Shown here: piece by piece, positions 3,389-14,741 of the stretch
Layout: each line of letters starts with the position of its first letter
Numbering within the stretch: the stretch's first letter is position 1
Notes under the pieces: generated by a model
Told to the model about the DNA's origin: nothing
Database searches by the model: none
The model's input: only the letters and a program-made list of their open reading frames with translations
Assembly (NCBI GenBank): GCA_964354105.1
Contig: CAYGXM010000003.1
Coordinates: forward strand, 789-64,788
DNA length: 64,000 nucleotides
DNA from: Candidatus Woesearchaeota archaeon
GTDB lineage: Archaea > Nanobdellota > Nanobdellia > UBA10117
Direction: 5' to 3'
Program-made: the position numbers and the translations under genes

Positions 3389-4693
3389 ATGGAGGCTGCT
3401 AGGGAGAAGGAAAAAGGAAAGCTTGCCAAGAAAGCCGGCAAGAAAACACTTGCAGGAATGTCTTGGCTTGGAAGAAAAACTGGGAAGCTTTTCAGGGATT
3501 CTATTCTTTTGGCAAGGCCTTTGAACAAAAAAGAAAGCTTTGTATTTTCAAAAGTCCGGCCATACTTAAAAGAAGGCGAGGAATTCAAGCTGCAGAAAGC
3601 GATTAAGCAAGGCAAGGCTAAGATCAAATTAAACAGATACGGCTGGTCTTTTCTCATTTCTGGAAATGACCTGCGGCCAAAAATCTTTTTTGTAAAGCCC
3701 GAGAAAAGAAGATTGAATCCGGATCATGATATAGAGGAAAAGCAGCAATTTTGGATAGAAGAATTGGACAAAAGAATCCGGAGACAATTTTTTGAACATA
3801 ATTTCCGGGAATTTGCAGAAAAAGCATGGACAGCAGCGCCACAATTCATTGGGCCAAATATTATTGGGTTAAAACATGTCAAGGAAGCTGCAGCTTTGCA
3901 GTTGTTTTGCAAAGAGCAGACTCATATTTTATTGCTTGGAGACCCTGGAACAGGAAAAACTGATATTTTGCGGTCAACTGCAGATTTGAATCCAATATCT
4001 GTATTTGGATTGGGCTCAGGAACATCAGGAGTCGGCTTAGCTGTTACAGTAAAAGGAAAATATGTGAGTCCTGGATTGTTGCCGAAAGCAGATTTGGGTT
4101 TGGCATGCATAGACGAATTAAATCTGATGAAGAAGGACGATTACGCGGCCCTGTACAACGCAATGGAAAAAGGCTTCATCACATATGACAAAGGAGGGCA
4201 TCACTACAGGTTTAATGCCCGCATTAAAGTATTGGCTACTGGAAATCCAAAAGGAGATAAATTTACAGCCTATGATTTGGAAACTGTAAAATCACAAATT
4301 CCTTTTGATTCTGCGCTTTTATCGAGATTCCATTTAGTTTTTATTGTAAAGAAGGCGACATTAAATGAATTTTCAGAAATTGCAGAAAAGATAATTTCTG
4401 AAGACAAAGTAAAAATAAATCTTGCAGATATTTTATTCTTGAAGAATTATGTTCGTTTTGTAAACAAATTAGATGCAGAAATCCCACATAATCTTGCTGA
4501 AAAAATCAAGGACTTTGTAACAAATCTGAAGGAAAAGGAAGCAGAACTGCCATTTGAGATAACCCCAAGAACAGTAATCGGAGTTACAAGACTGGCAAAA
4601 GCATCAGCCAGGATGGAACTAAGAAGTATTGTAGAAGGAAAAGATTTGGACAGGGTATTTAATATTATTACAAAAGCATATTTACTCTCATGA
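3389..4693 (+). CDS. MCM-family AAA+ ATPase without a recognisable MCM N-terminal domain
   Basis: Walker A LLLGDPGTGKT, Walker B ACIDELNLM, sensor-1 VLATGNP and an Arg-finger-like SRFHLVF occur in MCM-like order and spacing. Only about 160 Lys-rich aa precede the ATPase core, and no OB-fold or Zn motif was seen. Confidence 0.7.
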   Translation: MEAAREKEKGKLAKKAGKKTLAGMSWLGRKTGKLFRDSILLARPLNKKESFVFSKVRPYLKEGEEFKLQKAIKQGKAKIKLNRYGWSFLISGNDLRPKIFFVKPEKRRLNPDHDIEEKQQFWIEELDKRIRRQFFEHNFREFAEKAWTAAPQFIGPNIIGLKHVKEAAALQLFCKEQTHILLLGDPGTGKTDILRSTADLNPISVFGLGSGTSGVGLAVTVKGKYVSPGLLPKADLGLACIDELNLMKKDDYAALYNAMEKGFITYDKGGHHYRFNARIKVLATGNPKGDKFTAYDLETVKSQIPFDSALLSRFHLVFIVKKATLNEFSEIAEKIISEDKVKINLADILFLKNYVRFVNKLDAEIPHNLAEKIKDFVTNLKEKEAELPFEITPRTVIGVTRLAKASARMELRSIVEGKDLDRVFNIITKAYLLS

Positions 4694-4711: not shown

Positions 4712-7700
4712 CTAGGCATTCTTTAATGCTTCTTCTTGTCTTTTTCTCCATATTTCCTCACGGTAACTATCGATTGCAGCTTCACGGCGCAGAATTCTTG
4801 GCGGCATGCCAAGCCACTTGTAGAACTCATGAGGAAGAGATGTAAATACCACGTTCTTTTTGGCTTTATTAACTTCTTCAATAGATTTAATTATATCTAT
4901 TTTATTTTCTGCGAAATATTTCAAAACTTCTGTTCTCAGGTATATATTTTCCGCTAGCAAACGATTATCGTATCTACCCATTAGTATACCTTCTACATTA
5001 GTAGTGCCGTTTTCGTAAAGACTTTGCTGTGCTTTTGCTTCGATTAATTCTTCTAATAATAGAAAGCCCGCTTCGCGTCTTTCATCTGCCTCACCACGCA
5101 TCTCCTGCCAAAGTGTATTTATTTTGTCTAAATTTATGTGTAAAGCTTCGTCATTAAAGTAAATATTTTGTGAAACATCATCCCTAAATGAATACACAGG
5201 CTTCAAATGTTTAAGGCCAACTATGCTACTAATTTTTCTATCTAGCTCTCCAATAGAATCTAACAATGTTAAATATGCAGTATCATTTGGTTTTATTCTC
5301 GCAACCCTTTTAGTATCCAATATGCCAAAATCCTTTTTGTTTTTATTTCGGATTTTAAACGCTAGTTTTGAAAAATAGTCACCTATGTCTTGGAGTGTAT
5401 AGTCCTGATAGTTTGGAGGCGACTCACTTTTCCACAAATCAGTAAACCGCTCTTTCGCGTTCGCGAATTTGGTTTTTACGGCCTCGATGCGCCGTGCCCA
5501 CCCCTCGCTTCTCTTTTGTTTGGCTTCCTCTTTTTCCTTGAGCTTATTTTCTCTGATTGTAACCCACTCCATCTCTTGCTCCCTTAGCCGGGCCGCTTTT
5601 TTCCGAGCCCTAAATTCTCTTTCTGTAGCCTTTTTCTTCCTATCTTTTAGCCATCGCGTATACCAGGAACTACTGCTATCTACAAGACCTTGCGCAGCTA
5701 GCTTGCCATAAACATAAGGTATTCCAAACAATTGATAAAAGCCATAACCAACATCTCTACAAAAGTCGCCAATTGTGTCGAGATAATCTTCTAAAACTTT
5801 TACATCATATTTTTTATCAACCTTGAGTTTTATTTGGTCTAATCTTGTAACAATTCGATTGACTAGCGGATTACTATGTATGTCAACAAAATAGTCGCCA
5901 TCTTTTAACCAAAAAGCCTCTTTTTCAGTATCATATTTTAGCTTATCTTTAAAGTAAAGTTCTATCAATTTTTCAATGGATATGCGCATAGGTGCTCCGC
6001 GAAGATGTTTTCCGCTAAAAACATATCTTTCGCCGCCAATGATGTCTGACAAATAATTTTGCGCTTTTGGGCCTACAGAGACTGAGTCGCCAGCATATAA
6101 CGCGGCAGGTATTATGTCCTTAGACATTATTTCGCGAAAGAAATCGTCAGCCTTAATTTTCAGTGTATATTTCTTAGCCAATTTCTTACGTAACTTTTCT
6201 CTTTTTAATTCACGTTTTGCTTCAACATCTACATAAATATTTAATTTTTTCTTAAGGTCGTCTTTTATTTCATGCAAGTTATATTTTAGGTCACTCAAGG
6301 TAAATTTGTTTTTCGCATAAACCCCTACATCAAGTGCACCAAGTCCTATTGCAGCAAGTCCTGCAAGCGCTTGAGGCCCGTATGCTTTGTAAAGCGCGTC
6401 TAGACCAATAACAGCACCTATGCCGATGGCTGTTCCTGCGCCTATTACTCCGCCCGCCAGCAAAATTCCTTCTAGCGTAATATTGTGGCTGCTAGAAATT
6501 TTTTTCTTTGAAGATGGTGTTCGCGAGCGCATTTTGTCATAAACACTGCCTAGCCATTCTCTTACAGAACCACCAACTTCTATTATTTTTGCAGCTCCGG
6601 TAATGGCTCCACTATGGAAACGTCGCGAGATTGAATAATTTTGTTTAAATTTATTTGTCAAATCTGATTTATACTCAGATTCAAAAATATCTGCAAGCTC
6701 TTCAAGTAGTGCGCTCGATGGGTGCTTCATAATTCTATCATCACCCAATACGCCGCTAAGGAACAAATCCTCAAATGCTTCATACTCTGCAGTTAAAACT
6801 TCTATTTGATTATCTGCTATTATGCTGTTTCTACCTTTAGTTAATGTTACTGCTCTTGGCAGATTTACCCAAAAATCTACTCCTGTTTGCACTAAGCTAT
6901 TCATTAATTTGTAATGCAATGTTTTCTCGTCAAAAGGAATATTTTCATTTTTAATGAAAAGTCCGCGCTGTGTTAAAATAATTTTGTCGGAGTTAGAGTC
7001 ATCTTGAGATCCTGGACTTGTTAAATTCTGACATGAGTAAGCAATTGTCAACCCTTTGTCGCTGCCCTTGAGGTCAACGTCAACACCTTTTGATTTTGTA
7101 TATGCGCGTTCTGGATTATTGACCCACGCACCGTTAAAATAAACTCTTGCATCATTTGAGCTAACATGGCCAACATACTTAATGGCATTGGCCTTGAGCT
7201 GTTCAGGCTTGGTTATACTTTTTGGAATGTACATCGTAACTGTTGTTCCCTTGCCATTAAGCTCGAGCGGCGCATCTTTTGGCAATAAGTACACATCTGC
7301 AAGCCACTTTCCATCCTTTGTTTTTGATTCATTGTGCACAACTGATAAAATAGTATAATCTAGATTGGAAGTTTTACTCAATGTAGCTACAAATTCAGCC
7401 ATGTCTAGAGTTGAATACCAGCCTATACCATGTTCGCCTATTTTATTTGGGTTGAATTCTTTTGGCGAATTGTACGGAACTAAAAGGTCCCTAATTTGGC
7501 CCTCAAGGTCCATTCCACAGCCCTTGTCTGCTACGGTTAGGACATAGTATCGATCTTGCTCTTCTACACTATAATTTATTTTTCTTTCAGCATCAGATGG
7601 CTCATACGAATCCATCGAGTTCTGGTTAAGCTCGCGCAATGATGCATAACGATTGCCAAATTGTGCCTCTATTGTTTTATTAACAATGCCTTCAAACAAT

Positions 7701-7912
7701 TTTGGCGAAGTCTGCTTTTCGCGTGTTAATTCTATATATTTTACAGCCTGCTCAAAGCTGGCATTTTTAGTAGATTTAGGCAAAGCCTTAATAAAGCCAT
7801 CAAAATCGCCCGCCATTTGCATCATTACTAAATCATTGAGGTAGAATCTCTGATGGGGGTAGCTATTAAGATCCGTTAACAACTCATCAAGACCGTTATA
7901 AGATTCGTACAT
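4712..7912 (-). CDS. 1066-aa GHKL/Hsp90-like ATPase with central glycine-zipper hydrophobic segments and a basic coiled-coil region
   Basis: Bergerat-fold motifs: RELNQNSMDS (N box), VADKGCGMD (G1) and IGEHGIGWYS (G2), at residues about 93-166. Residues about 481-533 read GILLAGGVIGAGTAIGIGAVIGL...ALAGLAAIGLGALDVGVYA. Residues about 753-823 are a K/R/E-rich helix. It is the last gene of the operon. Confidence 0.7.
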   Translation of the reverse strand: MYESYNGLDELLTDLNSYPHQRFYLNDLVMMQMAGDFDGFIKALPKSTKNASFEQAVKYIELTREKQTSPKLFEGIVNKTIEAQFGNRYASLRELNQNSMDSYEPSDAERKINYSVEEQDRYYVLTVADKGCGMDLEGQIRDLLVPYNSPKEFNPNKIGEHGIGWYSTLDMAEFVATLSKTSNLDYTILSVVHNESKTKDGKWLADVYLLPKDAPLELNGKGTTVTMYIPKSITKPEQLKANAIKYVGHVSSNDARVYFNGAWVNNPERAYTKSKGVDVDLKGSDKGLTIAYSCQNLTSPGSQDDSNSDKIILTQRGLFIKNENIPFDEKTLHYKLMNSLVQTGVDFWVNLPRAVTLTKGRNSIIADNQIEVLTAEYEAFEDLFLSGVLGDDRIMKHPSSALLEELADIFESEYKSDLTNKFKQNYSISRRFHSGAITGAAKIIEVGGSVREWLGSVYDKMRSRTPSSKKKISSSHNITLEGILLAGGVIGAGTAIGIGAVIGLDALYKAYGPQALAGLAAIGLGALDVGVYAKNKFTLSDLKYNLHEIKDDLKKKLNIYVDVEAKRELKREKLRKKLAKKYTLKIKADDFFREIMSKDIIPAALYAGDSVSVGPKAQNYLSDIIGGERYVFSGKHLRGAPMRISIEKLIELYFKDKLKYDTEKEAFWLKDGDYFVDIHSNPLVNRIVTRLDQIKLKVDKKYDVKVLEDYLDTIGDFCRDVGYGFYQLFGIPYVYGKLAAQGLVDSSSSWYTRWLKDRKKKATEREFRARKKAARLREQEMEWVTIRENKLKEKEEAKQKRSEGWARRIEAVKTKFANAKERFTDLWKSESPPNYQDYTLQDIGDYFSKLAFKIRNKNKKDFGILDTKRVARIKPNDTAYLTLLDSIGELDRKISSIVGLKHLKPVYSFRDDVSQNIYFNDEALHINLDKINTLWQEMRGEADERREAGFLLLEELIEAKAQQSLYENGTTNVEGILMGRYDNRLLAENIYLRTEVLKYFAENKIDIIKSIEEVNKAKKNVVFTSLPHEFYKWLGMPPRILRREAAIDSYREEIWRKRQEEALKNA

Positions 7913-7914
7913 GT

Positions 7915-9537
7915 TTAAGAACCCCCTGCTTTTGCATTAGAGCGCGATATCATACGAATTACATCGCGCACCACAAGTTTGATCTCCTGCCGTAATTCTT
8001 TCAAGCTGCGCGGTTCTTCAATGTTAATTAAGAAATCGTTGAAAAGTGCATATGCTTTTTTGTAATCAAACTTGTCGCTAGCTACATACGGATGCGCTGC
8101 ATTAACATATACTACTTTATGGCGGTCCGAAAAAGTAAACACGCGAGACCCCACACTTCCAGGATTAACGACCTTCATTGTATAAAATGTATGATCAGGT
8201 TCGTCTAAATGCCTATAAATTAAACACAGATTAGGGTAGATTTGTAAATGTGGCATATCCAAATACTTTGCTCTATCATAGAGAAAGTCATTTTCAAAAT
8301 CTTCAAATTTTCCCCAATTTTTCCAAAATTCATATGTAGACGCTTGGTTCGTCACAAGGGCGATATTATCTAATTCAGGACCTATAAAATCTTCAAAAGT
8401 CGAGAAATCTCCTAACTTTAAAATATATTTTTTATCGTTAAAAATTAACTTTTGTAATGTACTCATATTTTTTGGATGTCCGCTAGTTGCAAATGCAACA
8501 TCCTTAACAAGGTCGGCTAATTTACTTGCATCACTAGGATATTCTAACTTAACATGCCTTAGGTACTCTTCAAGTAAATCGTAGATGCAATCTACGGCTT
8601 TAAAGTAATTATCATTTTGTTTGAATTCGTCTCTTCCTTCAACAGGGTTGACGGCGGACGGGAAGTTTAAAACCGCTCCGAGCGAATCTGCAAAACGCTC
8701 GCGTACGCGCACGCCTTGTGAGACAAGCTTTACTCGCTCGTTATTATCTATAGCAAGAGAAACAAATTGTTTCAATTTTTTGCCTTTGACATCAAATTCA
8801 ACTTCGCGATGTAATCTGTCAGGGGTTTGCGGATTTATCTGCTCGTTATTTACGTAAATAGCCGCCTTTTGAATAGGTATGTCTGCCAGTTGATTAGCTA
8901 AATATTTCTGGAGCCCATCCAGATTGTTTTTTGTTCTAATTGTTACTTTTGTACTGCGTAAACCTGGGTGTAAATTTGTTACTTTTCTATTAAGCTTCAT
9001 TCTCAAGTCCGAAACTTCAGAACCCGTCGAATAAAATGTCATTTTATTGCATTCAAGTCCAGTATTTGTTTCGACGTCAATTGAATTTCGCAAATCTTTC
9101 AAACAATAGTTAAGCGTTGACAAAAATCCAACTCCAAATTTACCTATAGTCTCAATGCCTTCTTTCTGCGTACTAAATGGAACTATTAAATCACTTAATA
9201 CGTCATAAAGAGTCATTGCTTTGCCAGCATCGCATATCGTTACATATTTTGGTCGAGCTTCTACCCAGATATTATACTGTTCGCAGTTCTCAGGCTTTGC
9301 ATCTATTGAATTAAGAATTACCTCAAGCACAGGGCGTTCTTGCTCAGGGAATTGTTTTATGGCCTCTTCACGCATTATTTTTTCTATGAATTTTCTATTT
9401 GTGCTGTACACTTTTATTTCATCAAGAGGCTTATTTTGGTCTATTAAATCAACTATTCTCTGAAGATTGTCTATGTTCAATCCGGACAATATCCAATCGG
9501 TTAGTGGGAGATCATACTCTCGCGCAAATAAGGCCAT
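7915..9537 (-). CDS. 540-aa GHKL/Hsp90-like ATPase
   Basis: Motifs are LEVILNSIDAKPEN (N box), ICDAGKAMT (G1) and IGKFGVGFLS (compare Hsp90 IGQFGVGFYS). The ORF-track start 9546 is GTG. The first ATG at 9537 lies 1 nt after the upstream stop (TAATATG). Confidence 0.7.
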   Translation of the reverse strand: MALFAREYDLPLTDWILSGLNIDNLQRIVDLIDQNKPLDEIKVYSTNRKFIEKIMREEAIKQFPEQERPVLEVILNSIDAKPENCEQYNIWVEARPKYVTICDAGKAMTLYDVLSDLIVPFSTQKEGIETIGKFGVGFLSTLNYCLKDLRNSIDVETNTGLECNKMTFYSTGSEVSDLRMKLNRKVTNLHPGLRSTKVTIRTKNNLDGLQKYLANQLADIPIQKAAIYVNNEQINPQTPDRLHREVEFDVKGKKLKQFVSLAIDNNERVKLVSQGVRVRERFADSLGAVLNFPSAVNPVEGRDEFKQNDNYFKAVDCIYDLLEEYLRHVKLEYPSDASKLADLVKDVAFATSGHPKNMSTLQKLIFNDKKYILKLGDFSTFEDFIGPELDNIALVTNQASTYEFWKNWGKFEDFENDFLYDRAKYLDMPHLQIYPNLCLIYRHLDEPDHTFYTMKVVNPGSVGSRVFTFSDRHKVVYVNAAHPYVASDKFDYKKAYALFNDFLINIEEPRSLKELRQEIKLVVRDVIRMISRSNAKAGGS

Positions 9538-9538
9538 A

Positions 9539-11356
9539 TTAACCACTTCCTCCTAAACCGTCACGCGTAGTTTTAATACTTTTTTTAATAAAATCCGCTG
9601 CAGATTCTATTAAATTAACGTCAGCGCCTATACCTCTCATGGCCGAACTAAAGTTGTCCTCTTCGCCAATCTTAAATAACACAAACTTGTCGCAGCCGTC
9701 TTCAAGCATTGGTGCTATTGTATCAACCACTTGCGTAGAATTTACAAGCCCGCCGTCCGTAAGCATTATAGACATATAATTATCACGCCTCGTATCGTGC
9801 ACTTTTTTAAGGTCATTAATTTCAAGCACAGTATCTGAACCACCAAATTTAAACGCTTTTTGTTTTGCTTCGTCCAAGCCATCAAAGCGCTGCCAGTCAG
9901 AACTTTCTGTTTTATCTGAAAATACAGTAACGTTATAGTTTAGTAAATACTGCAGGCCTAAACTTTCAATTGTGTTAAGCGTTCCGTAAAAGCCAAGTAA
10001 TGCCAAATGATAAGGACTGCTGTTGTCAAATGGAATAAAATTCATACTGCCGCTGCGGTCTAAGATGAAATTCAAATCAGGAATTGCGCCAGTCTTTTTA
10101 TAATTCTGCGCTATCCTCAGCGTAATAGGATATACTTTCTGGAATAGTTCTATGTATGGCTGGCCGTTTGGCTGTTTAGCCAATCTTATTGATGACCAGT
10201 CAACTCTGTTAAAATCAATGTCCTCAAGTGATGTTTCCTCAGAGCCGACATATTTTGAAAATGCAAGGCCTGCGCATTCGACGTCAAGCTCTATCCTTTT
10301 CGCCGCTTCTCTATATTTTCTGTCAAGCTCTTCAAATGAATATACGAAATTGTTTACATCTCTAACTTTACTATATTTCCTTTTTTCAGGTTTTTTAGAA
10401 TCTGGCCTTCTATTATTATTGTTATCTCCCGTAGGAGTGTTTCCTTGGCCGCCATCCTCTTCATCCTGATTTTCCTGCTGGTCATCTTTTTGCTTGACTA
10501 ATTGGTATATATCCAAGGGAGCAAGTATCTTTGCATACTCTCTTGCTTTAGCTTTCCACGCAGGCATCTTTGCCACCTCATCACAAATTTTTCTCGAAGT
10601 TTTATCGTCGATGTTGCAGTCAAGCACAGCATCGCACAAATCTTTGTCCTCGCCCAAAATTACATTCAAGAGTTTTTTGCGCATGCGTTTGTAGCCAAGC
10701 ATATATTTATCGAGAAAGCTTCTGTTTACATATGTGAGATACGATTCGCCGTTCCATAAGTAAAGATTTGTATCCATGAAAAGGTTGAATGATTTCTCGG
10801 TGCGCTCGAAAATACTTTTATCCTTTTTTGAGAACTCAAAATTACTTAAATAAGACCAAAGCATCCCATGTTTAAATCTCTCAGCATCTTTGTCCTCGTA
10901 AGATAAGATAGTATTGGCTATCGTATCCATAAACATATTGCTAATGCGTTGCGTTTTAGCCATAACCATTATAGGTTTCCATTCGTGTAGAATTACACCT
11001 TCGCGTATGCCTTTGAGAATTTCTTGTGCGCCTTTTTCTGTTGCAGGGCAATGTCTTGCATGGCCTTCTTCATGGCTTATAAGTCCGTACAGCGAATCGC
11101 ACGCCAATTCTTTTGTAGAGTCTTTCATGGCATGCTTGTATCTTAAATGATCGAGCACGTCGTAAAATTCAGGCCGAACGCCAATTCTTACCTGGTTTGA
11201 TAGCATATTAATATAAGCAAATGAGAGTGTAGGTATTTCTGGCTGAACTGTAAACTCTAAACTGGAAATTAGGTTTTTTTCTTGTAGCATCGCCTCGCAA
11301 GCTTGCCTTAGTTCTCCAATCTTAACTTCATTTTTGGTTGCCATTTTAATCTTCAT
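9539..11356 (-). CDS. predicted HExxH metallopeptidase-like domain fused to a C-terminal vWA (MIDAS) domain
   Basis: HExxH (SHEEGH, 11060-11074). An acidic/Asn-rich linker follows (QENQDEEDGGQGNTPTGDNNNN). The vWA MIDAS DxSxS motif is ILDRSGSM (10043-10060). An alternative ATG at 11344 lies 1 nt after the upstream stop. Confidence 0.75.
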   Translation of the reverse strand: MKIKMATKNEVKIGELRQACEAMLQEKNLISSLEFTVQPEIPTLSFAYINMLSNQVRIGVRPEFYDVLDHLRYKHAMKDSTKELACDSLYGLISHEEGHARHCPATEKGAQEILKGIREGVILHEWKPIMVMAKTQRISNMFMDTIANTILSYEDKDAERFKHGMLWSYLSNFEFSKKDKSIFERTEKSFNLFMDTNLYLWNGESYLTYVNRSFLDKYMLGYKRMRKKLLNVILGEDKDLCDAVLDCNIDDKTSRKICDEVAKMPAWKAKAREYAKILAPLDIYQLVKQKDDQQENQDEEDGGQGNTPTGDNNNNRRPDSKKPEKRKYSKVRDVNNFVYSFEELDRKYREAAKRIELDVECAGLAFSKYVGSEETSLEDIDFNRVDWSSIRLAKQPNGQPYIELFQKVYPITLRIAQNYKKTGAIPDLNFILDRSGSMNFIPFDNSSPYHLALLGFYGTLNTIESLGLQYLLNYNVTVFSDKTESSDWQRFDGLDEAKQKAFKFGGSDTVLEINDLKKVHDTRRDNYMSIMLTDGGLVNSTQVVDTIAPMLEDGCDKFVLFKIGEEDNFSSAMRGIGADVNLIESAADFIKKSIKTTRDGLGGSG

Positions 11357-12095
11357 TTACAGTCATGTACTGCGAAGGATTTCCAGTAAAGCGTTTTACT
11401 ATGAGTTTGAAAAGAGAATTTAGCTCTTCAAAACAAGGTTCAGGCAATGGATCTTTGTGTATTGTATGTATATTGTATAGCCAGTCATAAGTTTTATTGG
11501 GATTTTTTCTAATGTTGCAGGTGCTAATCATAACTTCACTGTATTCGTCCACGATTCCGCGTCTATACTCAAGTACCAAATGTGTTGCACCATCCAGTAT
11601 TTTTCGGATTCTTTCATCCTTGGTTTCCAGCAAATCGGAAATTGAACTAGGCGCGGAAAGCTGACCCTTTGCTATTCTTATACAATCTTCAATTCCAAAA
11701 ATGTCTAATTTCAACGGGCCTCTGGTGATGTAACCTTGCTCTAGCTCTTTTTTATCATATACCTTTATGTCAAAATTGCGCAGCTCTTGATTATCGAAAT
11801 GAAGCGTGATATTGTGTCTTCGAAGTTTATCCAGAATGCTCTGCCAGCTTTGCGCAGTTCCAACAATGTTTAAATCAACTACATCAACGCGTTCAGGACC
11901 ATATTTGAGGCTGAGCGCAAGTCTTGCACTATCTTTAGTGTAGTCTTTGTTAAATGTTACACTAAGATTATGTTCTCTTGCTTTAGTTTGTTCAATTGCC
12001 AACTGCACAAATGGCCTAATGTCTTTCGCATTAAATTTGTGGTCAAAAACTTCAGGGTAAAATTGCTCTTCAAATTTTTTGGGATCGAGAGGCAT
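11346..12095 (-). CDS. hypothetical protein (249 aa), operon member
   Basis: ATG at 12095 is preceded by GGAGG (minus-strand sequence TTAGGAGGACTCAAAATG). No motif recognised. It is tightly packed between the AAA+ and vWA genes. Confidence 0.6.
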   Translation of the reverse strand: MPLDPKKFEEQFYPEVFDHKFNAKDIRPFVQLAIEQTKAREHNLSVTFNKDYTKDSARLALSLKYGPERVDVVDLNIVGTAQSWQSILDKLRRHNITLHFDNQELRNFDIKVYDKKELEQGYITRGPLKLDIFGIEDCIRIAKGQLSAPSSISDLLETKDERIRKILDGATHLVLEYRRGIVDEYSEVMISTCNIRKNPNKTYDWLYNIHTIHKDPLPEPCFEELNSLFKLIVKRFTGNPSQYMTVNED

Positions 12096-12106
12096 TTTGA
12101 GTCCTC

Positions 12107-13693
12107 CTAATAAAGGTCCGTGCTGCCTTCAGTGATTTTTTTTGCAGGCTTGTTATACGCTTCAAGCACAACATGTAGCCAAGGATTATTCATATCACAA
12201 TCATTCTTAATTTTAGCCAGCGTGTCTTTATCAGCGGTGCCATTTACAACTGCTGCAAGATCTTGCGGGCCAATTTGCTGCAAACCTTCCATAAACTTTT
12301 TTTCCGCCCTATCTAGGAAAAATTCGACAGCAGCTAGTTTGTTTCCACCGAAGTTTTTGGTTACGTATGGTTGTGAAATATTTATTTTAGAGTATGCAAC
12401 AAAGCCGAGTGCAGCTTTAATATCGCCTATCTCTACTTCTAATTGGTTGGCATATTTTTTTACAGCTTGCTTTGCGAGCTGCTCATCAGTAATATTGCTT
12501 CCATTATCGACATAATTTCGTAATGAGTCCTTGAATTTTGTAGGATTTTTTATAGTATATGATAGTGGTATGCTGTTTTGGCCGCCTGTTAGATAGCCGT
12601 GCACAAGTTCTGCAAATTTTGTAGCCCTAATAGCAGCAAGTCCGCGCGCAATCAGAACAGTGTTTTTTGCCACGCCAGGAGTTAAACCACGTACATTTGG
12701 ACACAACTCTTTGCCGTCCTTATCGGTTCCATCAAGAATTTCGAGAAGACCGCAACGTGTGTGCACACTGCGGGCATCTAAGGCATCAGCATCGCCTGAA
12801 CAAAGTTTTCTTACTTGTTCTGGTGAAACCGCGCCTTTGCCTCGCTTCAATTTTTTGCAGTAATCAAATGCGCTAAGATATGAAACAAACATTTCTGCAT
12901 TAGGATTTACTGGAATGTTGCCAAGTTCTTTGTAAATGCAAAGCACATCTTCTAAGTTATCTGCTTTGTTGTTGAGGTCTATTTTTCTAGTTCTGCTTCG
13001 TTGTATTTCCAGCTTGTCGTGTGATGTTGGTGGAAAAGCATCTATTGGAATTTCAATCAAAGCTCGCCTTCGTGCAGCCTTGTCCATACCAAACGTGCCT
13101 GTGTAGTCTTCACCTTCATTTATGGCCATTATTTGAAATTGATAGCGCTGATTATTCCCGATGTCTGCGCCGATCAAGGCTCTCTTGCCATCAGGAAGAC
13201 TAATATCACCATCAAGAACGTGCATCAATTTATTCAGCAAAACAGCATGAGATCTGTTGAATTCATCTATAATCAATCCAGGCTTCAAAAAGAAAGCCCT
13301 CAAACTGTAAAATCCGTCAGATGATTTTTTACCTTCCGTTATAACGGAATAATCAATATCTGTAAAGGCTTCCTTGCCAAAATCAGTGTCGACATCGATT
13401 CTGTGCCAACCATCATTCTCCTGCCCAAAAAGCGCGTTCATTGTCAATTTTGCTAGTGTAGTTTTTCCAGTGTCTGTTCCACCAGTCAGCAAAACGGGAG
13501 AATTTGTTAAAGCACCGCTAAGCAGAATATCTTTAATTCCATAATGGACTGTAAACATGTGTTTTTGCTTTGATTCGTCAAGTATGATTTGGCTGTCTGA
13601 GTTGGCTAGTACAGCAGAATGTTGGTAGGGATTTGTGTTGTTGTAAAGTGCATACCTAAGCTTATGGGCCTTCTCCAAGATACCAATTTCCAT
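12107..13693 (-). CDS. MoxR/AAA_5-type AAA+ ATPase (528 aa)
   Basis: Walker A LLTGGTDTGKTT, Walker B GLIIDEFNRS, sensor-1-like MAINEG and the Arg cluster AARRRAL. A single AAA+ module is followed by about 300 aa of C-terminal extension. It is the first gene of the operon. Confidence 0.8.
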   Translation of the reverse strand: MEIGILEKAHKLRYALYNNTNPYQHSAVLANSDSQIILDESKQKHMFTVHYGIKDILLSGALTNSPVLLTGGTDTGKTTLAKLTMNALFGQENDGWHRIDVDTDFGKEAFTDIDYSVITEGKKSSDGFYSLRAFFLKPGLIIDEFNRSHAVLLNKLMHVLDGDISLPDGKRALIGADIGNNQRYQFQIMAINEGEDYTGTFGMDKAARRRALIEIPIDAFPPTSHDKLEIQRSRTRKIDLNNKADNLEDVLCIYKELGNIPVNPNAEMFVSYLSAFDYCKKLKRGKGAVSPEQVRKLCSGDADALDARSVHTRCGLLEILDGTDKDGKELCPNVRGLTPGVAKNTVLIARGLAAIRATKFAELVHGYLTGGQNSIPLSYTIKNPTKFKDSLRNYVDNGSNITDEQLAKQAVKKYANQLEVEIGDIKAALGFVAYSKINISQPYVTKNFGGNKLAAVEFFLDRAEKKFMEGLQQIGPQDLAAVVNGTADKDTLAKIKNDCDMNNPWLHVVLEAYNKPAKKITEGSTDLY

Positions 13694-13713: not shown

Positions 13714-13727
13714 GTTTATAAGTGTTT
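13714..13727 (-). promoter_or_regulatory. TATA-like box for the five-gene operon
   Basis: The minus strand reads AAACACTTATAAAC, with its core centred about 24.5 nt upstream of the ATG at 13693. That suggests a leaderless or near-leaderless transcript. Confidence 0.4.
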
Positions 13728-14597: not shown

Positions 14598-14741
14598 GCC
14601 TCGGTAGCTCAGCCAGGAAGAGCGTTAGGTTTTCAAAAAAGAGATGGAAATCCGCTAAGCCTTGGTATGCGCAAAGTCCCCTTTGCGGGATTGATTGCAT
14701 CAATAAGGCAAAGGTCGCCGGTTCGATTCCGGCCCGAGGCA
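14598..14741 (+). tRNA. tRNA-Thr (anticodon GGT) with two predicted introns (32 nt at 28/29, 38 nt at 37/38)
   Basis: Acceptor GCCTCGG/CCGAGGC. D arm GCTC-AGCCAGGAA-GAGC. T arm GCCGG-TTCGATT-CCGGC. Removing 14627-14658 and 14668-14705 gives a perfect anticodon arm TTGCC-TTGGTAA-GGCAA and a 74-nt mature tRNA. The isotype depends on this splice model. Confidence 0.7.

Follow-up and report, generated by a model that had tools for sequence, protein, structure and literature searches.

What kind of machine is encoded by five tightly packed minus-strand genes, g1 to g5, on contig CAYGXM010000003.1 of a Candidatus Woesearchaeota archaeon? The genes lie in a stretch of 64,000 nucleotides (assembly GCA_964354105.1, contig positions 789 to 64,788), referred to here as the window. 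A first-pass annotation, made from the sequence alone, had described them as an operon combining a MoxR-type AAA+ ATPase (g1), an orphan protein (g2), an HExxH-vWA protein (g3) and two GHKL/Hsp90-type ATPases (g4 and g5), and had proposed a single multi-ATPase system without a recognised name. The analysis reveals that the five genes are one conserved operon of Woesearchaeota/Pacearchaeota-type DPANN archaea, in an order far beyond chance. Rather than a single system, the operon is the union of two modules, each also found separately: module A, composed of g1, g2 and g3, and module B, composed of g4 and g5. The parts themselves are familiar; what is new is that Hsp90-type ATPases of a divergent, paired branch are coupled to a MoxR/vWA-zincin module.

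The five open reading frames (ORFs) are present and tightly packed between positions 4712 and 13693, both in the ORF list and on direct reading, and the junctions and motifs described earlier are all there (Table 1). Promoters or terminators would not fit into spacers of this length, and g1 to g5 are therefore probably co-transcribed. The TATA-like box assigned to the operon is also present in the sequence. It is possibly the promoter of a leaderless transcript, since its spacing of about 27 nt from the g1 ATG would fit a leaderless archaeal transcript. The g4 ORF in the list reaches further, to a GTG at 9546; the most likely start codon is the ATG at 9537, because the 540-aa product is recorded as P0001. 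Residues of g1 and g3 are given below in ORF or alignment numbering, the latter running one lower.

To follow the gene order, g4 relatives were traced to contigs and located in one genome per GTDB species, and the loci were annotated with a hidden Markov model (HMM) for each gene family. The genome scan used two peptide patterns, one or the other of which is carried by all 35 known g4-family proteins. It yielded 35 loci in 185,579 species-representative genomes, 12 of them with all five genes. The order g1-g2-g3-g4-g5 is unbroken wherever the contig is long enough, in the g4-seeded loci as well as in metagenome loci seeded independently from g3. In total, about 19 distinct DPANN loci (Woesearchaeota, Pacearchaeota and Nanoarchaeota) keep the five genes together in identical order at 25–48% identity, which bears out the neighbour conservation that the first-pass annotation had asked for. 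Identity to the window proteins is highest for g1 (38–48%) and lowest for g2 (11–23%), with g3, g4 and g5 between, and the listed motif residues are invariant or nearly so in the orthologue alignments. The nearest relatives of the window genes come from metagenome-assembled genomes (MAGs) of the same three groups. The genes around the operon differ from genome to genome: L7Ae, S28e, NDK and TruD genes in one setting, RNA-repair genes in another, and tRNAs with an MCM-like gene here.

Nanobdellota are represented by 870 NCBI assemblies and 1,239 tree taxa (2026 preprint). The operon would thus occur in about 1% of roughly a thousand Nanobdellota genomes, a figure that is rough because MAGs are incomplete. 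With 12 five-gene loci, the operon is too rare for a housekeeping role, which is rejected, and is therefore accessory.

The two modules part company outside these loci. The g4-g5 pair occurs without g1 to g3 in 17 loci, including other DPANN contigs, 11 loci of Polyangiaceae and related myxobacteria (Polyangium, Chondromyces) and one contig labelled Spirochaetia, which has bacterial-type neighbours and is probably from a spirochaete. Conversely, distant relatives of g3 are encoded beside an AAA+ gene resembling g1, in most cases separated from it by a small unrelated gene, and no Hsp90-like pair is found there. The g3 family comprises 276 clusters at 50% identity in a HMMER library search.

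The form of g5 follows the presence of module A. Short g5 proteins match the HMM of the long form at positions 25–424 and about 1000–1200, the middle ~430 residues being absent. The long form occurs with g1 to g3 in 12 genome loci and without them in one (L005), whereas the short form occurs in 17 loci and never with g1 to g3. This co-variation is the best clue that the g5 insert is the meeting point of the two modules. The insert contains a hydrophobic Gly/Ala hairpin, whose two segments have Kyte-Doolittle values of 2.0 and 1.7 in the window protein, and two K/E/R-rich helical stretches.

In the Polyangiaceae, the Hsp90-like pair lies divergent from a conserved Cys-rich lipoprotein gene (L033, 8172–9548 (-) and 4891–6516 (+); also L032 and L036). 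Besides its signal peptide and lipobox, the lipoprotein shows a MIDAS motif of vWA-like type, DASASM (VWA_2, E 0.002). In L033, a gene for a Cpn60/TCP-1 chaperonin is found a few kb upstream.

Within the GHKL ATPases, g4 and g5 belong specifically to the Hsp90 type, and they are paralogues. Their Bergerat motifs, the catalytic glutamate of ExxxNxxD included, are invariant in both families, and HMM alignments place them on the motifs of Hsp90. In g4, Pfam detects HATPase_c_3 (3e-6), and the family profile matches HtpG in the PDB (2e-4), with ExxxNxxD and IGxFGVGF aligned with the Hsp90 motifs. The AlphaFold2 model of g4 has a predicted local distance difference test score (pLDDT) of 84. Its top 50 Foldseek matches in the PDB are all full-length Hsp90, HtpG, TRAP1 or GRP94 structures (E 2e-12 to 5e-10), in alignments mostly of 600–690 columns with template modelling (TM) scores mostly of 0.33–0.44 and 11–14% identity. 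The whole-protein fold comparison was made with the g4 model, and g5 is classed by its profile, built from 11 orthologues, for which the 60 best PDB matches listed are all Hsp90 N-domains (best E 5e-10). The two families also match each other, with an hhalign probability of 99.2 and an E of 1e-19 over 384 columns, and a pairwise BLASTP E of 1e-9. The shared stretch covers an N-terminal extension, the ATP-binding domain, the middle domain and a GRD/GRN loop. In this loop, the invariant EGRDEFK of g4 and TKGRN of g5 align mutually and resemble NLSREMLQ of Hsp90; the G-R-(D/N) loop may thus be equivalent to the Hsp90 catalytic loop SRE, which contains R380 in yeast.

The first-pass assignment of g4 and g5 therefore holds, and a placement of the two in another fold fails, because both are assigned to Hsp90-type GHKL ATPases. 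An identity as MORC, MutL, GyrB or histidine kinase was ruled out for both, the top structure and profile matches all being Hsp90. The Pfam HSP90 model is matched by neither protein; at E ≤ 0.1 only HATPase_c and HATPase_c_3 are found. In the genomes, g4 and g5 are adjacent in all 30 loci in which the contig extends past g4, as expected for a heterodimer.

Compared with the Hsp90 proteins HtpG, TRAP1, Hsp82 and GRP94, the pair shares ExxxNxxD, a near-identical IGxFGVGF and, for g4, the three-domain fold. In contrast to the Hsp90 homodimer, g4 and g5 are always two divergent paralogues, and g5 has a long insert and another C-terminal domain. Canonical Hsp90 is thought to have entered archaea by horizontal transfer (PMC8166112). 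The best NCBIfam match of both proteins is the sacsin N-terminal ATP-binding-like domain (g4, 3.8e-8; g5, 3.3e-5). The scores, 34 and 24 bits, lie below the curated cut-off of 50, DnaJ, Ubl and HEPN partners are lacking, and the whole-protein fold is that of Hsp90. The Hsp90-like module of sacsin is a chaperone (PMC3710099), as are Hsp90 and sacsin in general (PMC3710099, PMC11687934). Tiamat TmtA has a GHKL-type ATP-binding motif in common with g4, which matches the PADLOC TmtA models at 3e-6 to 8e-5. However, the match covers residues 48–145 of g4 and 72–95 of the 1063–1486 model positions at 19–23 bits, which is the strength of a generic HATPase_c_3 match; TmtA is a single protein spanning those 1063–1486 positions, and g5 has no PADLOC match.

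Two observations concern the C-terminal parts of the pair. VVYVNAAHPYV in the g4 C-terminal domain (residues ~470–485) resembles DYFVDIHSNPLV in the g5 insert (~668–690), a likeness that may point to distant kinship, for which hhalign gives no support (E 0.33). In the g5 C-terminal domain (window ~4880–4990; alignment columns ~1570–1650), an HxxxH motif (e.g. LIHQRVHD) and a downstream histidine occur in 9 of the 11 long orthologues; the HxxxH is lost in the window protein (LIEAKAQQ) and in L005.

In module A, g1 is predicted to be a divergent MoxR-class AAA+ ATPase with a DExNR-type Walker B motif. Across 12 orthologues, the positions G70, T72, D73, G75, K76, T77, D142, E143, N145 and R207–209 (alignment numbering) are invariant. 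The profile built from these orthologues matches first the MoxR protein 2r44 in the PDB (E 9e-4, residues 52–271), followed by ClpB/ClpC D2 domains. At E ≤ 0.1, Pfam finds AAA_5 in 10 and AAA_3 in 6 of the 12 orthologues, all under the curated cut-offs (window g1 against AAA_5, 18.4 bits; cut-off, 22). These results agree with the MoxR-type label given before. The vWA gene g3 sits two genes downstream of g1 in all loci. An identity as an McrB-type GTPase was ruled out by the DExNR motif, the MoxR best match and the lack of an McrC partner.

The C-terminal half of g1 has four cysteines, C278, C297, C313 and C330 (alignment numbering), within residues 279–331 (12701–12859), which are kept in 12/12 orthologues and partly present in the g1-like proteins of the three-gene modules. 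This stretch may be a metal-binding insert.

g3 begins with an HExxH domain, which a disordered linker joins to a vWA domain at the C-terminus. In 14 orthologues, H94, E95 and H98, D432, S434 and S436, T508 and D533 (alignment numbering) are invariant; the MIDAS residues DxSxS...T...D correspond to D433, S435, S437, T509 and D534 of the ORF. Among 48 wider relatives, the MIDAS residues are kept in 47–48 and the HExxH in most, and Pfam VWA matches 14 (best 2e-7). The AlphaFold2 model (pLDDT 84) has an N-terminal domain of sheet plus helices, the disordered linker and a C-terminal vWA fold. In this model, the HExxH lies on a helix of residues 80–100 that is preceded by a three-stranded sheet. 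Candidates for the third zincin ligand are D144, in a conserved NxxxDxxxN motif, and C103. Foldseek against the PDB returns NorD of the NorQD complex as the best match, along with integrin I domains, TFIIH p44 and Rpn10, at target-normalised TM scores of 0.5–0.68; against BFVD, full-length matches are found to phage VWFA proteins (E ~1e-9) and to ATV ORF892. The C-terminal part of g3 is thus modelled as a vWA fold with a complete MIDAS site, and the combination of HExxH and vWA/MIDAS in the first-pass annotation is upheld.

Its further placement of g3 in the DUF2201-type family is not. DUF2201-type proteins have the same domain order and an adjacent MoxR gene, but the models PF13203 and PF09967 match neither g3 (E ≤ 1) nor any of the 48 family members (E ≤ 0.01). 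In a word-indexed homologue search, the g3 query found g3 alone and a vWA-only alignment found nothing; the low-complexity linker probably swamped the word index.

In one distant locus (L040, 2535–7799), two genes of the Pup-ligase family (1e-82 and 4e-34) and a gene for a 54-aa protein that ends in ...NDTQGQ, reminiscent of Pup, immediately precede a g1/g3-like pair. This neighbourhood suggests a tie between the vWA-zincin family and tag conjugation.

The middle gene g2 is found in every complete five-gene locus between the AAA+ and vWA genes, and has no match in Pfam, PADLOC, NCBIfam, PHROG or PDB-profile searches. In the distant three-gene modules, unrelated small proteins occupy its position. 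It is possibly an adaptor or substrate. In L041 (9223–9987) and L042 (3529–4293), an ankyrin-repeat protein (Ank_2, 1e-12) stands in its place, which makes the middle gene look like an adaptor or substrate that can be exchanged.

Several known systems resemble module A. In the NorQ-NorD, RavA-ViaA, CbbQ-CbbO and ATV p618-ORF892 pairs, as in the operon, a MoxR-type ATPase gene lies near a vWA/MIDAS gene. Unlike in these pairs, g1 scores under the Pfam cut-offs and has a four-Cys C-terminal half, a small third gene intervenes, g3 adds an HExxH domain, and an Hsp90-like pair follows while no client enzyme is encoded alongside. NorQ/NorD, a hexamer plugged by a single vWA protein, remodels cNOR and requires surface carboxylates of its client (PMC9976466). 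The two-protein architecture of g1 and g3 is the same as that of the phage pairs of MoxR and metallopeptidase-vWA proteins (Iyer et al. 2021, PMC7824862), for which, as for MoxR-vWA of ATV, a link to the assembly of virions or tails is described (PMC7824862). However, no phage record or PHROG is matched at the sequence level, and the operon is archaeal and linked to Hsp90-like genes that phages lack. The vWA-MoxR-VMAP ternary systems (Kaur et al. 2020, PMC7159879) also have three genes around MoxR and vWA, sometimes with a peptidase domain fused to the vWA component, comparable to g3. They occur mainly in multicellular prokaryotes (PMC7159879), and the distribution here likewise includes multicellular bacteria. 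In contrast to them, the bpMoxR model of Pfam matches 2 of 12 g1 orthologues (E 0.087), and no VMAP protein or effector-associated domain was detected; the paper on these systems has no mention of GHKL or Hsp90 (PMC7159879).

Membership in the DUF2201-type, VMAP and Tiamat families was rejected on the Pfam models, on bpMoxR and the effector domains, and on the full length of TmtA, respectively. The operon falls outside the curated sequence models of Hsp90 and MoxR, but has their motifs and folds. Beyond the generic Bergerat-motif match to TmtA, no named system is matched in PADLOC, PHROGs or NCBIfam, and no paper joining MoxR, vWA and Hsp90-like/GHKL genes in one system was found in a full-text literature search. 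The earlier view that no named system is recognisable here is thus sustained.

We favour, with a probability of about 40%, a reading in which the operon encodes a machine that is accessory and self-contained and uses ATP to remodel a protein at the membrane and process it proteolytically; it would be chaperone-like rather than toxic. g4 and g5 would form an obligate heterodimeric ATP clamp in the style of Hsp90, and the g5 insert would both anchor the clamp in the membrane and offer module A a docking site or target. One g3 molecule would use its vWA domain to plug a hexamer of g1, as in NorQ/NorD. With its MIDAS site, g3 would grip an acidic residue, either of the client or of the g5 insert; g1 would hydrolyse ATP to pull or remodel the gripped partner, and the HExxH domain would cleave the held protein. 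The net effect would be the maturation or activation of a protein at the membrane, and the client may be g2 or g5 itself. The experimentally characterised relatives of both modules are all chaperones or maturation factors, and searches of the five proteins with Pfam, PADLOC, NCBIfam and PHROG revealed no toxin domain, whether nuclease, NADase or other.

Several points weigh against this reading. The heterodimer, the insertion into the membrane, the contact between g1 and g3 and the cleavage are all inferred. The proposed equivalence of GRD/GRN to Hsp90 Arg380 is drawn from motif resemblance and position. A comparison by hhalign of the g4 C-terminal domain with the g5 C-terminal domain or insert gives nothing significant (best E 0.016, 15 columns). 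The membrane-type glycine zipper that the first-pass annotation saw in g5 is a clear hydrophobic hairpin in the window protein, but the hairpin is weaker and moderately hydrophobic in the orthologues and falls under the threshold in L011; membrane insertion of g5 is plausible from the sequence and not robustly conserved. No client gene is conserved beside the operon, unlike in chaperone operons of the norCBQD type. In addition, the operon is rare and its modules are patchy across archaea and bacteria, a pattern equally typical of defence systems.

In the main rival, the operon may be a nucleoside triphosphate-dependent conflict system, acting against viruses or by abortive infection, in which the Hsp90-like pair senses a foreign or misfolded protein and a MoxR-vWA switch lets the HExxH protease release or activate the hydrophobic, glycine-rich g5 hairpin, damaging the membrane. 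Such a role, to which the first-pass annotation had leaned, is a serious possibility with the odds against it. Direct evidence for it did not emerge, in that no toxin, nuclease or recognised pore domain was found and PADLOC matches nothing beyond the generic Bergerat motif (~23 bits over ~75–100 residues), the weak match of g4 to Tiamat TmtA. The rival stays alive because the operon is rare, self-contained, with no conserved client neighbour, and patchily distributed; its modules are common to DPANN archaea, Polyangiaceae and what is probably a spirochaete, a spread implying horizontal transfer. No homologues were found in PHROG, phages or plasmids, however, nor were att sites or a GC anomaly, and some loci adjoin ribosomal-protein, NDK and TruD genes. 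Further points in favour of the rival are the weak TmtA match itself, some neighbours of toxin-antitoxin or restriction type (MNT/HEPN in L020, GmrSD and MazE in L041) and a contig on which a short pair accompanies the complete operon (L012 and L021).

The proteins themselves point both ways. In favour of the rival, divergence is very fast, above all in g2, and in the related trios the small middle gene varies in a way reminiscent of diversifying adaptors. Conflict systems with three components around MoxR and vWA are known (PMC7159879). Wherever the protease module is present, so is the g5 insert with its hairpin, which occurs a single time in its absence. Against the rival, the hairpin is only moderately hydrophobic in orthologues, and the fold found is that of Hsp90 rather than of MORC/paraMORC, a type seen in restriction settings.

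A two-component ATP-dependent protease or quality-control system appears distinctly unlikely. Here g1 and g3 would act as a split machine of the FtsH/Lon or proteasome-lid type, with the Hsp90-like pair holding substrates and g2 as a tag or adaptor. The constant pairing of an AAA+ ATPase with a conserved HExxH protein in the family is consistent with this arrangement, as is the presence of Rpn10 among the structural matches of g3, the vWA domains of Rpn10 and midasin being receptors for ubiquitin-like or acidic tags. On the other hand, threading and unfolding of substrates is not known for MoxR-class AAA+ proteins. The L040 pair does follow two Pup-ligase-family genes and a Pup-like 54-aa protein ending in QGQ, but this link comes from a single contig of a distant relative, and no tag-ligase genes were found in or near the operon within the window. 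The protease reading overlaps the favoured membrane-remodelling machine and does not exclude it. Finally, a fortuitous adjacency of functionally unrelated modules is very unlikely: each module does occur alone elsewhere and DPANN genomes are densely packed, but the identical order with 1–11-nt junctions or overlaps persists in ~19 loci at 25–48% identity amid non-conserved surroundings, and the g5 insert co-varies with g1 to g3.

A broader proposal builds on the favoured machine and is rather unlikely as a whole. g4 and g5 would represent an unrecognised, deeply divergent Hsp90 branch that functions as an obligate heterodimer in archaea and in some bacteria and that, in DPANN archaea, is tethered to the membrane and loaded or processed by the MoxR/vWA-zincin module, a new class of chaperone machine. 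If so, the heterodimeric clamp and module A would perhaps build or operate a cell-surface or host-contact apparatus of DPANN episymbionts.

Hsp90 is seen as a bacterial and eukaryotic chaperone, present in archaea only by transfer, and is studied as a homodimer in which asymmetry has to be engineered. A natural pair of always-adjacent Hsp90-like paralogues would provide a built-in asymmetric Hsp90 system, and the cultured myxobacteria that have the pair (Polyangium, Chondromyces apiculatus DSM 436) would make it testable. The fusion of a MoxR-vWA-protease module with Hsp90-like genes in DPANN archaea links two ATP-driven remodelling machines that are not described together in the literature found. 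This pairing, the heterodimer-like archaeal Hsp90 genes and the testable myxobacterial homologues would surprise chaperone specialists. In either role, chaperone or defence, a function would be gained for ~1% of a very small genome and for at least 276 uncharacterised g3-related protein clusters.

Table 1. Positions of the operon, its motifs and domains, and neighbouring genes in the window.
Feature	Position	Strand	Description
g1	12107-13693	(-)	528 aa; predicted divergent MoxR-class AAA+ ATPase
g1 Walker A	13460-13483	(-)	GGTDTGKT, residues 71-78
g1 Walker B	13253-13273	(-)	IIDEFNR, residues 141-147
g1 arginine-finger region	13061-13078	(-)	RRR
g2	11346-12095	(-)	249 aa; orphan, possible adaptor or substrate
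g3	9539-11356	(-)	605 aa; HExxH domain, linker and vWA/MIDAS domain
g3 N-terminal domain	~10502-11356	(-)	helical HExxH (zincin-like) domain; HEEGH 11060-11074, residues 95-99
g3 linker	~10349-10501	(-)	disordered, K/E/G/N-rich
g3 C-terminal domain	9539-10348	(-)	predicted vWA domain; MIDAS DRSGSM 10043-10060, residues 433-438
g4	7915-9537	(-)	540 aa; soluble full-length Hsp90-like ATPase
g4 N box	9298-9327	(-)	LEVILNSIDA; E72/N76/D79
g4 G1	9214-9231	(-)	DAGKAM
g4 G2	9118-9147	(-)	IGKFGVGFLS
g4 M-domain loop	8620-8643	(-)	VEGRDEFK
g5	4712-7912	(-)	1066 aa; long Hsp90-like paralogue
g5 Hsp90-like N + M region	6662-7849	(-)	
g5 N box	7607-7636	(-)	RELNQNSMDS; E94/N98/D101
g5 DKGCGMD	7508-7528	(-)	
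g5 IGEHGIGWYS	7412-7441	(-)	
g5 LTKGRNSI	6821-6844	(-)	
g5 operon-specific insert	5366-6661	(-)	~430 residues (418-849), between middle and C-terminal domains
g5 hydrophobic Gly/Ala hairpin	6314-6466	(-)	residues ~482-533; segments 482-500 and 514-532
g5 C-terminal domain	4715-5365	(-)	common to short forms
g1/g2 junction	12096-12106	(-)	TAG, then 11-nt spacer gaggactcaaa; GGAGG ribosome-binding motif spans the stop codon
g2/g3 junction		(-)	11-nt overlap (ATG 11356) or 1-nt spacer (ATG 11344)
g3/g4 junction		(-)	TAAtATG, 1-nt spacer; GGAGGAAG upstream
g4/g5 junction		(-)	TAAacATG, 2-nt spacer
TATA-like element	13714-13727	(-)	TTATAAA within AAACACTTATAAAC, ~27 nt upstream of g1 ATG; direct reading
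MCM-family gene	3389-4693	(+)	434 aa, short; MCM P-loop (9e-38) and MCM lid, without the usual N-terminal domain
Intron-containing tRNA genes	2638-2731, 2735-2843, 14598-14741	(+)	Rfam; missed by ARAGORN

The window carries a Taw1-type wyosine radical-SAM gene, the MCM-like gene and intron-containing tRNAs, and is archaeal. The MCM-like gene is convergent with g5, 18 nt separating the two stop codons; short MCMs are frequent on archaeal integrated elements. The first-pass annotation had placed the operon in an accessory block flanked by tRNAs, an assignment that holds in part. The flanks are indeed richer in tRNAs than described, as Rfam adds three genes (that at 14598-14741 has an insertion of ~70 nt), which together with the tRNA-Lys at 410-484 bracket the block of the MCM-like gene and the operon. 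On the other hand, no att-like repeats of the flanking tRNAs were found, and the GC content of the operon (0.385) does not deviate from that of the window (0.394). A tblastn search of plasmids found no homologue of g4, one of phages found none of g4 or g1, and there is no PHROG match. Taken together, these results on GC content, att repeats and homologues give no sign of a mobile element for the operon in the window.

A complete operon is also found on a contig filed as viral in IMG/VR (L043; IMGVR_UViG_3300028840_008160, 329.8 kb). Its operon genes are equal in length to those of the metagenome loci L002 and L047 and have near-identical HMM scores. The contig looks like a cellular DPANN contig, or one with a provirus elsewhere. 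A viral origin was rejected, since this sole IMG/VR match mirrors the two metagenome loci. Another contig, CAYOKQ010000009.1, which is labelled Methanosarcinales, perhaps through a binning error, carries the full operon and, ~10 kb away, a second short g4/g5 pair (L012 and L021 share this contig).

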